A stretch of 64,000 bases of DNA from the NCBI RefSeq assembly GCF_003334785.1, contig NZ_QOWV01000001.1, one strand, 5' to 3'. The DNA comes from Escherichia coli. Its GTDB lineage: Bacteria; Pseudomonadota; Gammaproteobacteria; Enterobacterales; Enterobacteriaceae. Shown here in pieces: positions 33,749 to 54,413 of the stretch; position 1 is the first letter of the stretch; each line of letters opens with the position of its first letter. The position numbers were made by a program, and so were the translations under genes. The notes below the pieces were generated by a model. The model searched no databases. It was not told the origin of the DNA and worked only from the letters and a program-made list of their open reading frames with translations.

Positions 33749-33847
<99 letters not shown>

Positions 33848-34810: not shown

Positions 34811-34899
34811 TGTAGGCCGGATAAGGCGTCCCCGCCGCATCCGGCACAGGCACCGTGCTGATGTCTGATGCGACGCTGGCGCGTCTTATCAGACCTACA
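34811..34899. repeat. Pair of REP elements between artM and artJ
   Basis: tgtaggccggataaggcgtccccgccgcatccggca and tgatgcgacgctggcgcgtcttatcagacctaca. Confidence 0.65.
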
Positions 34900-49414: not shown

Positions 49415-50110
49415 TTAATCACGCTTTTCCAGCAGGGTCCGGTAAATCAGACCACCGATAATGCCGCCGACAATTGGCACCACCCAGAAGAACCACAGTT
49501 GTTCTAATGCCCAGCCGCCCTGGAAGATAGCAACCGCGGTGCTGCGCGCCGGGTTAACAGAAGTGTTAGTCACCGGAATACTAATTAAGTGAATCAGGGT
49601 TAAGGCCAGACCAATAGCGATCGGCGCAAAACCTGCCGGCGCGAATTTGTCGGTTGCGCCGTGGATCACCAACAGGAAACCTGCACTCAATACCAGTTCA
49701 ACTACCAGCGCGGAAAGCATGGAATAACCGCCTGGTGAATGCTCGCCATAACCGTTAGAAGCAAAACCGCTGGCTGCCGCGTCAAAACCCGTTTTACCAC
49801 TGGCAATTAAATACAGCAGCGCCGCTGCAACAATACCGCCGACAACCTGGGCAATTACGTAGCCAACGACTTCTTTTGCCGGAAAACGTCCGCCAGCCCA
49901 TAAACCAATAGTGACCGCCGGGTTAAAATGACCACCAGAAATATGACCAACAGCAAAGGCCATCGTCAGAACGGTCAGACCGAACGCCAACGCCACGCCG
50001 GCAAAACCAATGCCTAATTCCGGGAAGCCTGCGGCCAGTACAGCACTACCACAGCCACCAAAAACAAGCCAGAAAGTACCAAAACATTCAGCTGCTAATT
50101 TTCTGAACAT
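49415..50110 (-). CDS. aqpZ: Aquaporin Z
   Basis: ORF trimmed to [17 protein letters not shown] (231 aa); NPA motifs present. Confidence 0.9.
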
Positions 50111-50535
50111 ATCCACCTCAATTAAAAATTGACCCTGTGAAAAATATGGTCGTTTTATAGGGTCGTCGTAAAAAAGTGACGACGGAAATAATGCGCGGCT
50201 ATTTTAAAAACGAAGGCGAGTCATTCACCAGATAAATAAATCCAGTAAATTTGATTTAGGGCAACAGCGGGTTGCCCCATATAGTCATTTGTCTGATTGA
50301 CAGTGTAGTGCACGCAAAAGATTTAATCCTTTAGGCGTAATAAAAAATAATTTATCATGCTAATTATTTGATTTTGTTGTTTTTGCAGACTTATCAGCAA
50401 GAGGGAGTATAACGCGATTATTCGCTCATTTTTCAGACATTTGCCATGCTTAAATGTGATGTCATCACGTATTAGCAAGGCCTTTCCCGTTATACTGCCA
50501 GCGTAAAGGATAAGTCACATATTTCTGGAGGGGAT

Positions 50536-52194
50536 ATGATTCTTGAGCGCGTTGAAATTGTGGGTTTTCGCGGTATCAACCGTTTGTCGTTGATGCTGGA
50601 ACAAAACAACGTCCTGATTGGGGAGAACGCGTGGGGTAAATCCAGCTTGCTGGACGCCTTAACTCTGCTGCTATCGCCAGAATCAGATCTCTACCATTTT
50701 GAGCGCGACGATTTCTGGTTCCCGCCGGGAGATATCAACGGGCGAGAACATCATCTGCATATTATTTTGACCTTCCGCGAATCGCTGCCAGGCCGACATC
50801 GGGTTCGCCGTTATCGGCCGCTGGAAGCGTGCTGGACGCCATGCACCGATGGCTATCACCGTATTTTTTATCGTCTGGAAGGGGAGAGTGCGGAAGACGG
50901 CAGCGTGATGACACTGCGCAGTTTTCTCGATAAAGACGGACATCCGATTGATGTCGAGGATATTAACGATCAGGCACGCCATCTGGTGCGTTTAATGCCG
51001 GTGCTGCGCTTGCGTGATGCCCGTTTTATGCGCCGTATTCGTAACGGCACGGTGCCAAATGTCCCTAATGTGGAAGTCACCGCGCGCCAGCTCGATTTCC
51101 TCGCCCGTGAGTTATCCTCACATCCGCAAAATCTCTCTGATGGGCAGATTCGTCAGGGACTTTCCGCAATGGTACAGCTGCTTGAGCATTATTTCTCTGA
51201 GCAGGGGGCCGGACAGGCGCGATATCGTTTAATGCGGCGGCGAGCCAGCAATGAGCAACGAAGCTGGCGCTATCTGGATATCATCAACCGGATGATTGAC
51301 CGACCTGGTGGGCGCTCGTATCGGGTTATTTTGCTCGGCCTATTTGCTACTTTGTTGCAGGCAAAAGGCACATTGCGACTGGATAAAGACGCCCGTCCAT
51401 TGTTGCTGATCGAAGATCCAGAAACCCGTTTACACCCCATTATGCTTTCAGTTGCCTGGCATCTGTTGAATCTTCTGCCATTGCAGCGCATTGCCACCAC
51501 CAACTCGGGTGAGTTGCTTTCGTTAACGCCGGTAGAGCATGTTTGCCGACTGGTACGTGAGTCCTCGCGCGTTGCCGCCTGGCGTCTGGGGCCGAGTGGC
51601 TTGAGTACCGAAGATAGCCGACGCATATCCTTTCACATTCGTTTTAACCGTCCGTCATCGCTGTTTGCACGCTGCTGGTTGCTGGTGGAAGGGGAAACGG
51701 AAACCTGGGTTATCAATGAACTGGCGCGTCAGTGCGGACATCATTTTGATGCCGAAGGGATCAAGGTCATTGAGTTTGCCCAGTCCGGGCTAAAGCCACT
51801 GGTTAAATTTGCCCGCCGAATGGGGATTGAATGGCATGTACTGGTCGATGGCGATGAAGCAGGGAAGAAATATGCCGCTACGGTACGCAGCCTGTTGAAT
51901 AACGATCGGGAAGCCGAACGAGAACATTTAACGGCGTTACCGGCGCTGGATATGGAACATTTTATGTATCGCCAGGGATTTTCCGATGTGTTCCACCGCA
52001 TGGCGCAAATCCCGGAAAATGTACCGATGAATCTACGCAAAATTATCTCGAAAGCGATCCATCGCTCTTCCAAACCCGATCTTGCCATTGAAGTGGCAAT
52101 GGAGGCAGGACGTCGTGGTGTGGACTCCGTACCGACGCTGCTGAAAAAAATGTTCTCACGCGTGCTGTGGCTGGCGCGCGGTCGCGCGGATTAA
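50536..52194 (+). CDS. ybjD: YbjD, OLD-family (ATPase plus TOPRIM) putative nuclease
   Basis: 552-aa ORF; N-terminal P-loop GENAWGKSSLLDAL; C-terminal TOPRIM-like acidic motifs LLVEGETE and VDGDEAG. Confidence 0.85.
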   Translation: MILERVEIVGFRGINRLSLMLEQNNVLIGENAWGKSSLLDALTLLLSPESDLYHFERDDFWFPPGDINGREHHLHIILTFRESLPGRHRVRRYRPLEACWTPCTDGYHRIFYRLEGESAEDGSVMTLRSFLDKDGHPIDVEDINDQARHLVRLMPVLRLRDARFMRRIRNGTVPNVPNVEVTARQLDFLARELSSHPQNLSDGQIRQGLSAMVQLLEHYFSEQGAGQARYRLMRRRASNEQRSWRYLDIINRMIDRPGGRSYRVILLGLFATLLQAKGTLRLDKDARPLLLIEDPETRLHPIMLSVAWHLLNLLPLQRIATTNSGELLSLTPVEHVCRLVRESSRVAAWRLGPSGLSTEDSRRISFHIRFNRPSSLFARCWLLVEGETETWVINELARQCGHHFDAEGIKVIEFAQSGLKPLVKFARRMGIEWHVLVDGDEAGKKYAATVRSLLNNDREAEREHLTALPALDMEHFMYRQGFSDVFHRMAQIPENVPMNLRKIISKAIHRSSKPDLAIEVAMEAGRRGVDSVPTLLKKMFSRVLWLARGRAD

Positions 52195-53183
52195 CCGCGA
52201 AACATCGTGGCCATTTGTGGCTGAATAGCGTCGAGCATCTCATAGCGCCGACGGTATTCAGCCCGTTTTTTACTGGCGATTTCGGCAATCTCTTTTCGTG
52301 CTATCTGTGCTGGAAGGCGGTAATGGCGTTCAGCATCACATACGCCGCCAACCGATTCCCAGAAAGCGTTGTAATCAGCGTGGATCTTGCCTTCTTTATC
52401 GCGATAACGCAGGCTGCGGTAAATATGCGTTTCATTGCTGACGGCAATAATCTGCTCTACCTGCAAACGTTGGGCAAACAGACAGGCCGCTTCCATCACG
52501 AGGCGTTTGGGAAATAGCCCGTGGCAGGCTTTCGTCGCATTCTGGATTTCCTGATGTGGAATTTCCCATTTTGCGCCTTGCAGTCCGCCAATAAACATCG
52601 TTCTTTTCCCCTGATATTCACACAGGGTAAACGTGATCTCTGCCAGAGGAATACCTTCGCTGTTGCGGAACAGGATTGTGCTGTCACCTTCTTTATCCAT
52701 TGAGATCATCATGGTCAGCTCAAGCGTGAACTGCTCGCCGTTTTTGCCTTCCAGCTTCGCCAGTTGCAGCCCGGGGGTATTCAAATATAAGCTGAATTCT
52801 TCCGCCGACATACATTCGCGGAGTAACGCATAATGGTAACGTAACGCCTCCAGCAATTGCTTACGGCTAAGATTCGCCGCAAGGTAAGGGCGATGCAGAC
52901 GCACAGGCAGTCGCGGCTGGCGCGTTAACAATACATTGAGATTAGGCCAGTGGGAAAGTTCGTTCATCCACTCAACGCTTAAACGCGGCATAATCAACGA
53001 GCGCAGCAAAAATTTCTGGCGAAAACTACGGCGATGCCAGAATTTACCCGGCCGACACTGTCCACGTGCCAGACTAAGAAAAAGTGACAGGCTGCTGAGA
53101 GATTCAGATGGCGTAAAGGTCCGTTCAGTTAGCTGCGACATATTCATGAAATCAATGGTTATACATGGCGTCGATTTCACCAT
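52191..53183 (-). CDS. ybjX: DUF535/VirK-like protein YbjX
   Basis: 330-aa ORF, convergent with ybjD; K-12 position. Confidence 0.75.
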   Translation of the reverse strand: MVKSTPCITIDFMNMSQLTERTFTPSESLSSLSLFLSLARGQCRPGKFWHRRSFRQKFLLRSLIMPRLSVEWMNELSHWPNLNVLLTRQPRLPVRLHRPYLAANLSRKQLLEALRYHYALLRECMSAEEFSLYLNTPGLQLAKLEGKNGEQFTLELTMMISMDKEGDSTILFRNSEGIPLAEITFTLCEYQGKRTMFIGGLQGAKWEIPHQEIQNATKACHGLFPKRLVMEAACLFAQRLQVEQIIAVSNETHIYRSLRYRDKEGKIHADYNAFWESVGGVCDAERHYRLPAQIARKEIAEIASKKRAEYRRRYEMLDAIQPQMATMFRG

Positions 53184-53297
53184 TGCGTATCTTAACCAAA
53201 CATCAATAGTGTGATTACTAACGTAAATTTTAGGGTTTTGTTGATATTTCGTTGAAGTTAATGACCCGGATTGGCATATGGAGTATTCAGAAAATTT

Positions 53298-54413
53298 ATG
53301 AAAAAGCGGAAAACCGTGAAGAAGCGTTACGTTATTGCGCTGGTGATAGTCATCGCCGGACTGATTACGTTATGGAGAATTCTTAACGCACCCGTGCCGA
53401 CTTATCAGACGCTGATTGTGCGCCCCGGTGATTTACAGCAAAGCGTGCTGGCGACCGGAAAGCTGGACGCGCTGCGTAAGGTTGATGTGGGCGCGCAGGT
53501 CAGCGGTCAGTTGAAAACTCTGTCGGTGGCGATTGGCGATAAAGTAAAAAAAGACCAGCTTTTAGGGGTTATTGATCCTGAACAGGCTGAAAACCAGATT
53601 AAGGAGGTCGAAGCAACGCTGATGGAGCTACGTGCGCAGCGGCAGCAGGCGGAAGCGGAGCTGAAACTGGCGCGGGTGACGTATTCCCGTCAGCAACGTC
53701 TGGCACAAACGAAGGCTGTTTCACAGCAGGATCTCGACACCGCCGCGACGGAGATGGCTGTGAAACAGGCGCAAATTGGCACCATTGACGCGCAAATCAA
53801 GCGCAATCAGGCTTCTCTCGATACGGCTAAAACCAATCTCGATTACACTCGCATCGTTGCCCCGATGGCCGGGGAAGTCACGCAAATCACCACTCTGCAA
53901 GGCCAGACGGTGATTGCCGCACAACAAGCACCGAACATTCTGACGCTGGCAGATATGAGCACCATGCTGGTAAAAGCGCAGGTTTCTGAAGCGGATGTAA
54001 TCCACCTGAAGCCGGGGCAAAAAGCCTGGTTTACGGTGCTTGGCGATCCACTGACGCGCTACGAGGGGCAAATCAAGGATGTACTACCGACGCCGGAAAA
54101 GGTTAACGACGCTATTTTCTATTACGCCCGTTTTGAAGTCCCCAACCCCAATGGTTTGCTGCGGCTGGATATGACTGCGCAAGTGCATATTCAGCTCACC
54201 GATGTGAAAAATGTGCTGACGATCCCTCTGTCGGCGTTAGGCGATCCGGTTGGCGATAATCGTTATAAAGTCAAATTGTTGCGTAATGGTGAAACACGCG
54301 AGCGTGAAGTGACGATTGGCGCACGTAACGATACCGATGTTGAGATTGTCAAAGGGCTTGAAGCGGGCGATGAAGTGGTGATTGGTGAGGCCAAACCAGG
54401 AGCTGCACAATGA
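53298..54413 (+). CDS. macA: Macrolide efflux membrane fusion protein MacA
   Basis: ORF trimmed to [16 protein letters not shown] (371 aa); overlaps the macB start. Confidence 0.9.

Follow-up and report, generated by a model that had tools for sequence, protein, structure and literature searches.

The ybjD locus and its neighbours

The window analysed here, a stretch of 64,000 nucleotides of Escherichia coli DNA, carries ybjD (proposed name oldB) on its plus strand at positions 50536..52194, stop codon included. The list of open reading frames contains exactly one ATG-initiated ORF of 552 aa at these positions, the identical sequence carries the RefSeq label 'ybjD: ATP-dependent endonuclease', and the translation, which ends in RGRAD*, is matched from end to end of its first 440 residues by two Pfam families described below. 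The annotated neighbourhood comprises aqpZ, ybjX, lysO and macAB. Upstream lies the divergently transcribed aqpZ (49415..50110, minus strand, from the annotation), separated from ybjD by an intergenic region of 425 bp that serves as a neutral insertion site (PMC9203016). In a scan for promoters and terminators over positions 50000-53400, nothing resembling a sigma-70 site was found upstream of ybjD, and the terminator-like matches fall within coding sequence and are uninformative.

The convergent neighbour is ybjX (52191..53147, minus strand; RefSeq annotation and translation), a member of the VirK/YbjX family. The ybjD stop codon, TAA, occupies positions 52192-52194 and the minus-strand stop codon of ybjX positions 52191-52193, so that at the junction, GGATTAACCG, the two frames overlap tail to tail by 4 nt (TTAA, 52191..52194), with 2 nt common to both stop codons; the convergent arrangement with overlapping stops described in the earlier note is therefore correct. 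An overlap of the same kind (YTAR) is found at 44 of the 58 Enterobacterales loci at which ybjD and ybjX occur together, and the pair has been listed from RNA-seq as a convergent excludon (PMC12288877). There is no operon membership of ybjX with ybjD, and ybjX is missing from several genera and has diverged far more than ybjD. As a secondary possibility, the conserved 4-nt overlap could couple the expression of ybjD inversely to that of ybjX, an envelope-stress gene.

No helicase, reverse transcriptase or split ATPase gene lies beside ybjD in E. coli or at 80 Enterobacterales loci, and the same partner genes are absent from the Vibrio, Motilimonas and Succinivibrionaceae-type loci of its relatives. 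Two distant relatives, P0213 and P0219, are on short metagenomic contigs whose gene lists contain no helicase. The context of ybjD is that of Class 1 OLD genes, with no UvrD/PcrA/Rep-like helicase, no retron reverse transcriptase or ncRNA, and an unsplit ATPase-Toprim frame. This agrees with Schiltz et al. (2019), who used YbjD as a query for defining the OLD classes and placed E. coli in Class 1 (PMC6755086). That YbjD is an OLD-family ATPase-nuclease is thus already known, the protein having counted as the OLD homologue of E. coli since at least 2019; what is added here is the conservation count, the range of synteny, the congruence with MacB, the dN/dS values and the invariance of the Toprim metal-binding residues.

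Architecture and predicted catalytic residues of YbjD

YbjD matches Pfam DUF2813 over residues 1-375 (E=3.5e-160) and OLD-like_TOPRIM (PF20469) over residues 376-440 (E=7.8e-16), and with these E-values its motifs stand far above chance level. The best PADLOC match is to the GajA model PDLC00094 (6.8e-80, mainly residues 260-549), and the PADLOC Old model matches at 1.9e-24. NCBIfam has no equivalog model for YbjD, and its sole matches, all far under the curated cut-offs, are to the N-terminal P-loop (MADS3, RecF, PtuA and the Eco8 effector). When YbjD was compared with P2 Old by BLASTP, residues 252-440 aligned with an E-value of 4e-12, together with an N-terminal P-loop segment. P2 Old, archetype of the Class 1 proteins, is likewise the product of a single gene, with an ABC-type ATPase interrupted by a helical insert and followed by a Toprim domain, and the Walker A, Walker B/H-loop, Toprim Glu and DxD motifs of the two proteins align, although the identity is only about 28% and is confined to residues 252-440.

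A single-sequence AlphaFold model of YbjD was dropped (pLDDT 37.7) and an alignment-based AF2 model was used instead (pLDDT 85.3, pTM 0.83). The top Foldseek matches of this model are all full-length OLD proteins (8sm3, 4.8e-19; 6p74, 1.1e-17; 9lpa, 1.7e-14), and GajA is the top PDB match both by sequence and by fold. The comparison supports the view that the predicted fold of YbjD is that of the solved full-length OLD proteins. The HMM and structure comparison with OLD nucleases that the earlier note had called for has thus been run and does find structural similarity to them, and its proposal of an OLD-type P-loop ATPase joined to a TOPRIM domain is sustained by the HMMs, by the alignment with P2 Old and by the fold.

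The N-terminal ABC/SMC-type ATPase has a Walker A P-loop, GENAWGKSS, at residues 29-37 (50620..50646, plus strand), whose lysine, K35, is the residue mutated in published work on YbjD (PMC13261556). Residue conservation was counted in a set of 63 homologues that are 28-91% identical. G29 and G34 are each present in 62/63 and E30 in 63/63, and at position 35 there is a lysine in 56, an arginine in six and a serine in one. The Walker B motif and H-loop, LLLIEDPETRLHP, lie at residues 289-301 (51400..51438, plus strand; translation and homologue alignment) and align with LIFIDEPELYLHP of P2 Old and LIEEPEISLH of GajA, showing the acidic pair followed by a PE..LHP H-loop that is a feature of OLD proteins. 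E293 (57/63), E296 (59/63) and H300 (62/63) are well conserved, and position 294 is D in 36, E in 18 and N in five of the homologues. The second Walker B acidic residue of YbjD, D294, is an Asp where Glu is usual, and this unusual residue at the position of the catalytic base suggests slow hydrolysis, as in a sensor rather than a motor.

Within the ATPase, the AF2 model predicts a helical insertion at about residues 161-285 (51016..51390, plus strand), with helices at 177-195, 202-223, 241-255 and 260-277 and low confidence at 165-175 and 222-241. It closes with a degenerate signature-like sequence, GGRSYR (family consensus GSGAQR), and, together with one other region of YbjD, evolves faster than the rest of the protein. 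In position it matches the dimerisation domain seen in solved OLD proteins, and the comparison with Thermus scotoductus OLD (TsOLD) and GajA (PMC10568477) suggests a role in dimerisation.

The C-terminal Toprim core spans residues 376-440 (51661..51855, plus strand), and the translation places EGETE at 385-389 within LLVEGETE and the DxD motif, DGD, at 438-440 within VDGDEAG, so that the earlier description of a 552-aa ORF with these motifs and GENAWGKSS is borne out. E385, G386, E387, E389 and D440 are invariant across the 63 homologues and D438 is present in at least 90%; the invariant Glu and DxD are those of the metal A site of OLD proteins. In a phmmer alignment with the C-terminal region of Burkholderia pseudomallei OLD (BpOLD), E385/E389 fall on VEGDAE and D438/D440 on DLD, the BpOLD counterparts being named E400/E404 and D455/D457 (PMC6755086). 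This alignment supports a correspondence of E385, D438 and D440 to the metal A site, and E389, D472 and E474 probably correspond to the metal B site. D472-M-E474 (51949..51957, plus strand), at the start of a C-terminal helix, contains two invariant acidic residues, and its x-E pattern and position resemble those of T506/E508 of BpOLD, from which we infer the assignment to metal B. K513 (52072..52074, plus strand) is probably the catalytic lysine, judged by its invariance and by its position, which is analogous to that of K562 of BpOLD. In all, 19 alignment columns are invariant, and every predicted catalytic residue is among them.

Inheritance and selection

A megablast search of 5426 complete E. 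coli genomes detected ybjD in 5425 of them, at a nucleotide identity of 95-100% and with a median of one copy per genome, which upholds its earlier description as a conserved chromosomal core gene. The order lysO-(aqpZ)-ybjD-(ybjX)-macAB is retained in genera as distant as Serratia and Hafnia, and the frame is full-length and intact at 78 of 80 species loci; ybjD is kept where ybjX has been lost, as in Klebsiella and Raoultella. In the K-12 strain NCM3722 an IS1 element is inserted within the gene. YbjD identity declines with phylogenetic distance, from 97% in Escherichia albertii through 91% in Citrobacter and 85% in Klebsiella/Enterobacter to 64-68% in Serratia/Pectobacterium/Hafnia, 64% in Yersinia, 56% in Proteus, 45% in Aeromonas and 42-43% in Vibrio, and single-gene, full-length relatives are found in Aeromonas, Vibrionaceae, Succinivibrionaceae and beyond. 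Pairwise distances between YbjD proteins track those of MacB (r 0.89, slope 1.10). These data support vertical inheritance of ybjD at a fixed chromosomal locus across the Enterobacterales.

The dN/dS ratio is 0.015 in the comparison with E. albertii and about 0.03-0.09 in the others, and the Toprim core has the lowest dN of all YbjD segments in 22 of 24 comparisons. With dN/dS at about 0.015-0.05, purifying selection on the gene is strong, and no part of it is more constrained than the nuclease site.

The sequenced phages searched contain no close relative of YbjD; besides P2 Old, the search picked up MT836637.1, a metagenomic contig of 9.3 kb that is labelled 'Bacteriophage sp.' and carries no annotation, at 25.8% identity over 35% of the query. 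Another 'phage' record, 2 kb long and also unannotated, is 91% identical over 98 residues but was taken to be host DNA and set aside. High-identity matches to 'plasmids' were likewise discounted: the records in question are chromids or run to megabases, being chromosomes under a wrong label, and they give no sign that ybjD is mobile.

Possible functions of YbjD

YbjD was characterised in a micropublication of May 2026, in which the name oldB was proposed, and the gene is expressed (PMC13261556). The susceptibility of a knockout to 68 BASEL phages is unchanged, whereas overexpression at a non-toxic inducer level lowers plating of Bas18 and Bas20 and makes the plaques of Bas64-68 smaller; the anti-phage effects are weak and dependent on induced expression (PMC13261556). 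They need the ATPase domain, but the Toprim domain is dispensable and recBC is not needed, the K35A mutant retains the effect and is more toxic, and recBC(ts) cells are not killed (PMC13261556). Two of the checks suggested in the earlier note, a recBC-dependent phenotype and the phage sensitivity of a deletion mutant, have therefore already been published, the first with a negative outcome and the second with no phage phenotype. As the sole phenotypes reported to date are anti-phage ones and do not depend on Toprim, they may not involve the nuclease. We found no biochemistry of YbjD (ATPase, nuclease or oligomeric state) in the literature searched, and a search on DUF2813 returned no papers; the remaining mentions of ybjD, which carry no functional data, are in expression and proteomics lists and in a report of an EnrR ChIP peak upstream of the homologue in Edwardsiella.

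Near-universal presence, a fixed locus, congruence with MacB, purifying selection and invariant Toprim residues together form the pattern of a housekeeping gene and not of a mobile defence gene. The best explanation, which we regard as highly probable, is that YbjD is a solitary, vertically inherited Class 1 OLD protein that would act as a resident, housekeeping-type enzyme of surveillance or nucleic acid processing. It would oligomerise through the helical insertion, as other OLD proteins do, and the nucleotide state of its ATPase head would serve as a switch, either holding back or permitting two-metal cleavage of nucleic acid by the Toprim domain, for which DNA nicking and tRNA/RNA cleavage are candidate reactions. 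The ATPase module could then produce the weak, Toprim-independent anti-phage effect of overexpression as a side activity. Both the Keio knockout and the IS1 insertion in NCM3722 show that ybjD is dispensable, so any housekeeping role must be non-essential or redundant.

A more specific form of this idea, which we hold only tentatively, is that YbjD is a bacterial counterpart of Cran1 of the Sulfolobales, an OLD enzyme recruited long ago in the Gammaproteobacteria for a non-defence cellular task, with the selected activity residing in the invariant Toprim site. Cran1, too, belongs to an OLD-family clade whose tree tracks the species tree and whose active-site residues are all conserved, and from this congruence and conservation its authors proposed a non-defence function (PMC12796447). 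The likeness is partial, however, as Cran1 is archaeal, essential and a demonstrated nickase with a role in the cell cycle, whereas YbjD is dispensable. On a Cran1-like reading the task might be the processing of DNA structures or of tRNA/RNA under a particular stress. The suggestion in the earlier note that YbjD is a domesticated defence nuclease is speculative, although it fits both the conservation data and the published phenotypes (PMC13261556).

It is also possible, though on present evidence rather unlikely, that ybjD is a dedicated single-gene Class 1 defence system acting by abortive infection or by attacking phage nucleic acid directly, as P2 Old and the Vibrio cholerae Vc OLD do. The overexpression phenotypes point in this direction, as do the PADLOC matches to the GajA and Old defence models and the fact that the nearest solved structures are all of defence proteins, and universal presence within a species is compatible with defence, there being some core-like defence genes. 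Moreover, Vc OLD is, like YbjD, a solitary bacterial OLD protein independent of RecBCD, and it has true defence activity, protecting against ICP1-3 (PMC12392090). Vc OLD, however, depends on Walker A, on Walker B and on the aspartates of its Toprim domain (PMC12392090), and P2 Old, which is lethal to recBC cells, requires the Walker A lysine and the Toprim acidic residues (PMC10568477), whereas the effect of YbjD persists after Toprim deletion and in K35A and leaves recBC(ts) cells alive (PMC13261556), so that the most conserved part of YbjD is the part that its anti-phage effect can do without. P2 Old, moreover, is prophage-borne, whereas ybjD is neither patchily distributed nor horizontally spread, lies outside defence islands and mobile elements, and has no close relative in sequenced phages; the unchanged phage susceptibility of the knockout and the requirement for induction also argue against dedicated defence. 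TsOLD (PDB 6P74), also of Class 1, shares 17-21% identity with YbjD and has been demonstrated to be a non-specific 5'-3' exonuclease and an ATPase (PMC10568477), activities that in YbjD are predicted.

The strength of the GajA matches, in PADLOC and among PDB sequences and folds alike, raises the question of whether ybjD is a Gabija gajA (Class 2) orphaned by the loss of gajB, with a product that acts by itself or together with a helicase from another part of the genome, and in SGI1-type islands a uvrD-like gene does lie beside a gene annotated 'ybjD' (PMC9035990). GajA of Bacillus cereus (PDB 8SM3, 8U7I, 8X5I) forms a 4:4 complex with the adjacently encoded GajB helicase, however, whereas no helicase adjoins ybjD at any locus examined, and we therefore rejected this improbable origin. 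Finally, the view of ybjD as a decaying or catalytically dead relic, retained fortuitously or for the benefit of ybjX (e.g. as a transcriptional buffer), could draw on its dispensability in the laboratory, the degenerate GGRSYR, the Asp after Walker B, and the conserved overlap and excludon behaviour of the gene pair, but is close to refuted by the low dN/dS across the whole protein (0.015-0.09), the invariant catalytic columns, the intact frames, the persistence of ybjD without ybjX and its expression (PMC13261556).

The puzzle is that a member of a phage-defence family has been kept fixed, slowly evolving and in single copy across a whole order of bacteria and with an unchanging nuclease site, while its only known phenotype is independent of the nuclease. 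An answer would tell whether bacterial OLD enzymes hold housekeeping roles, as Cran1 does in archaea, and would also take one gene off the list of wholly uncharacterised E. coli genes.

Domain architecture and predicted catalytic site of YbjD

The ybjD gene (50536..52194, + strand, ATG start) is the sole such entry in the ORF list and encodes a 552-aa protein ending in RGRAD*. At the DNA level it matches K-12-type genomes of E. coli with 100 % identity; RefSeq names it 'ybjD: ATP-dependent endonuclease' there, and it is flanked by the divergent aqpZ and the convergent ybjX, with lysO, hcp-hcr and macAB annotated farther out. The motifs that the earlier note had read from the sequence are all present in the translation, with the Walker A motif GENAWGKSS at residues 29–37, EGETE at residues 385–389 (inside LLVEGETE) and DGD at residues 438–440 (inside VDGDEAG); LLLIEDPETRLHP occupies residues 289–301. 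HMM comparison likewise agrees with the proposed kinship to OLD nucleases: Pfam OLD-like_TOPRIM matches residues 376–440 (E-value 7.8e-16) and DUF2813 residues 1–375 (3.5e-160), with weaker matches of the P-loop segment to AAA_15, AAA_29, AAA_23 and SMC_N, and the top PADLOC models are GajA (PDLC00094, 6.8e-80) and Old (1.9e-24). An NCBIfam search returned no model at or above its own cut-off. When YbjD was compared by BLASTP with the Old sequence extracted from the P2 genome, residues 252–440 aligned with 28 % identity (E-value 4e-12), as did the N-terminal P-loop segment.

A single-sequence AlphaFold model was not usable (pLDDT 37.7), and a model built with a 63-homologue alignment reached a pLDDT of 85.3 and a pTM of 0.83. 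The best Foldseek matches of the latter in the PDB are all full-length OLDs, namely GajA (8sm3, 4.8e-19), Thermus scotoductus TsOLD (6p74, 1.1e-17) and the retron Eco8 OLD (9lpa, 1.7e-14), with PtuA and Rad50 ranking after them; the lack of structural similarity that the earlier note held would count against it is therefore not what was found. YbjD can be assigned securely to the OLD family. The Class 1 label, which is defined by gene context as a solitary gene, also fits YbjD, and it says little about mechanism; the model is equally far structurally from Class 1 TsOLD and Class 2 GajA, and Class 2 is nested within Class 1 in published OLD phylogenies (PMC12796447).

Among 63 homologues with 28–91 % identity to YbjD, residues E30, R362, H367, R379, W381, E385, G386, E387, E389, W391, F414, G418, D440, G443, D472, E474, G481, K513 and P514 are invariant, and D438, E293, E296 and H300 nearly so. 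At Walker A position 35, 56 homologues have K, six have R and one has S; the Walker B acid is followed by D in 36 of them, by E in 18 and by N in five. In a phmmer alignment with the C-terminal region of Burkholderia pseudomallei BpOLD, FARCWLLVEGETETW and VLVDGD of YbjD pair with FARGIIFVEGDAERF and VLTDLD. According to the paper on the BpOLD structure, metal A is held by E400 and D455/D457 and metal B by E404 and T506/E508, and K562 is a catalytic lysine (PMC6755086). The alignment thereby predicts E385, D438 and D440 as metal A ligands of YbjD and E389 as part of its metal B site; judged by invariance and position, D472/E474 probably correspond to T506/E508, and K513 to K562.

The ybjX junction and flanking features

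As the earlier note described, ybjX (52191–53147, − strand, 318 aa) is convergent with ybjD and the stop codons overlap; the ybjD TAA lies at 52192–52194 and the ybjX stop at 52191–52193, so that the frames share the four bases TTAA (52191–52194). Such a 4-nt tail-to-tail YTAR overlap occurs in 44 of 58 Enterobacterales loci with both genes (within L003–L082), Serratia included; the remaining loci have gaps of 3–164 nt, apart from one with a 12-nt overlap and one with an additional ybjX-like copy in between. The gene ybjX, of the VirK/YbjX family, evolves much faster than its neighbours: its identity is 46–60 % in genera that keep 80–92 % for ybjD, macB and aqpZ (80–91 % for ybjD itself), and it is missing at Klebsiella, Raoultella, Trabulsiella, Superficieibacter and some other loci. 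The two genes are thus no conserved functional pair. Transcriptional interference between them is plausible, and they are listed among E. coli convergent excludons by the RNA-seq-based ExcludonFinder (PMC12288877). The cathelicidin-type peptide B22, an inducer of arn, evgS and marR, modestly raises the ybjD signal in UPEC, reflecting either sense transcription or ybjX read-through.

A simple scan of the 419-bp aqpZ–ybjD intergenic region (50117–50535) found no consensus σ70 promoter. This region is the Pages laboratory's neutral site for int-xis cassette insertion (PMC9203016), and in Edwardsiella one top ChIP peak of the xenogeneic nucleoid protein EnrR lies upstream of the ybjD homologue. 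Elsewhere in the window, Rfam gathering-score matches identify the sRNAs RybB (22039–22117, −, 105 bits), ES036/CssrF (33793–33835, +, 42 bits) and naRNA4/CssrE (34815–34895, +, 75 bits). A single CRISPR-DR4 repeat (Rfam, 50.1 bits; 59816–59903, +) adjoins a tRNA (59950–60034, −); it reads GTTCACTGCCGTACAGGCAGCTTAGAAA, and after it come a 32-nt spacer and a degenerate second repeat, GTTCACTGCCGTACAGACAGATAAAATG. No cas genes were found in the part of its surroundings inspected, and the site resembles an orphan CRISPR remnant of type I-F style.

Distribution and inheritance

The core-genome status claimed for ybjD is borne out: of 5426 complete E. coli genomes, 5425 carry the gene (median one copy, 95–100 % nucleotide identity). 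Searching a single genome for each species gave at least 494 relatives, of which the best 80 are all from Enterobacterales. Identity drops with phylogenetic distance, from 97 % in E. albertii through 89–91 % in Citrobacter, 84–86 % in Klebsiella, Enterobacter and Raoultella, 64–68 % in Serratia, Pectobacterium, Brenneria and Hafnia, 64 % in Yersinia, 56 % in Proteus and 45 % in Aeromonas to 40–43 % in Vibrio, Salinivibrio and Photobacterium. PLSDB 'plasmid' records with YbjD in the Yersinia to Photobacterium series are in fact chromosomes or chromids. The order lysO-(aqpZ)-ybjD-(ybjX)-macA-macB is conserved from Escherichia through Serratia, ybjD being constant and aqpZ and ybjX variably present. 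In 56 species the pairwise protein distances of YbjD track those of MacB (r 0.89, slope 1.10), and YbjD therefore diverges at the rate of a neighbouring core gene.

Against E. albertii (dS 0.81) the dN/dS ratio of ybjD is 0.015; for pairs farther apart, whose dS is saturated, it is 0.03–0.09. The Toprim core has the lowest dN in 22 of 24 comparisons (0.005 against E. albertii, versus 0.014–0.023 in the N-terminal ATPase and insert). More remote members, grouped into 335 clusters (50 % identity, E < 1e-30), occur in Vibrio, Motilimonas, Tatumella, Succinivibrionaceae, Chitinilyticum and one Binatia MAG, and those with readable context are solitary as well, amid housekeeping genes.

Succinivibrionaceae orthologues (Anaerobiospirillum and gut metagenome relatives; P0150, P0162–P0206; loci L086/L087, 392–4360) are 800–1867 aa long, with huge low-complexity stretches inserted into the ATPase region and behind the Toprim core; their N-terminal P-loop, Toprim motifs and C-terminal helix are ~40–45 % identical to those of E. 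coli. In K-12 strain NCM3722, a widely used 'physiological wild-type', ybjD is interrupted by IS1A (L088 1501–3936, corresponding to 50536–52194) and annotated in RefSeq as two DUF2813 pseudogene fragments; this strain is therefore a natural ybjD null. A tblastn search of 50,697 phage records found no close relative in sequenced phages apart from a 2-kb unannotated fragment. YbjD (50536–52191, +) and YbjX (52194–53183, −) strongly match PHROGs of unknown function (phrog_4747, 4.6e-116, and phrog_35383, 9.2e-152), which probably contain host DNA out of mis-delimited prophages.

Published phenotypes and possible role

The OLD identity of ybjD was already known, and our analysis confirms the observation and supports the interpretation in the earlier note. 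Schiltz et al. (2019) began their OLD homologue search from E. coli K12 b0876 (YbjD), for which they gave 18 % identity and 35 % similarity to P2 OLD, and placed E. coli in Class 1 as having a single, isolated gene (PMC6755086). A May 2026 micropublication wholly on ybjD, proposing the name oldB, found the gene to be expressed (PMC13261556). There, neither of the phenotypes suggested for examination was seen: plating of 68 BASEL phages was unaltered on the Keio knockout, and a recBC(ts) strain survived YbjD, in contrast to P2 Old. The HMM and structure, phage-sensitivity and recBC checks are thus largely covered. Arabinose-induced ybjD lowered plating of Bas18 and Bas20 and gave smaller plaques of Bas64–68; this effect was unaltered in a Toprim-less construct (1–377), lost on ATPase deletion, and retained in K35A with higher toxicity (PMC13261556).

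Typical defence genes are patchy and island-borne, whereas ybjD is universally present at a fixed locus, diverges much as the species tree does, and is under strong purifying selection with its nuclease site frozen. The same pattern led the authors of work on Cran1, an OLD-family ATPase of Sulfolobales, to seek and find a non-defence function (PMC12796447), and the oldB authors, who commit to no physiological role for YbjD, cite this archaeal precedent (PMC13261556). Since the sole known phenotype makes no use of the Toprim domain, we think that selection most likely acts on a function other than the anti-phage effect of overexpression, and our preferred reading is a resident enzyme of nucleic-acid surveillance or processing. 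In such an enzyme the ATPase head would gate a two-metal Toprim nuclease, the nucleotide-bound form perhaps being the 'off' state as in GajA (PMC10568477), which would fit the Walker B catalytic-base Asp and the higher K35A toxicity. Its substrate could be either DNA, on which TsOLD (PMC10568477) and Vibrio cholerae OLD (PMC12392090) act, or tRNA, which PMC12445682 (also cited in PMC13261556) reports for P2 Old. The Toprim site of YbjD is invariant yet dispensable for the known phenotype.
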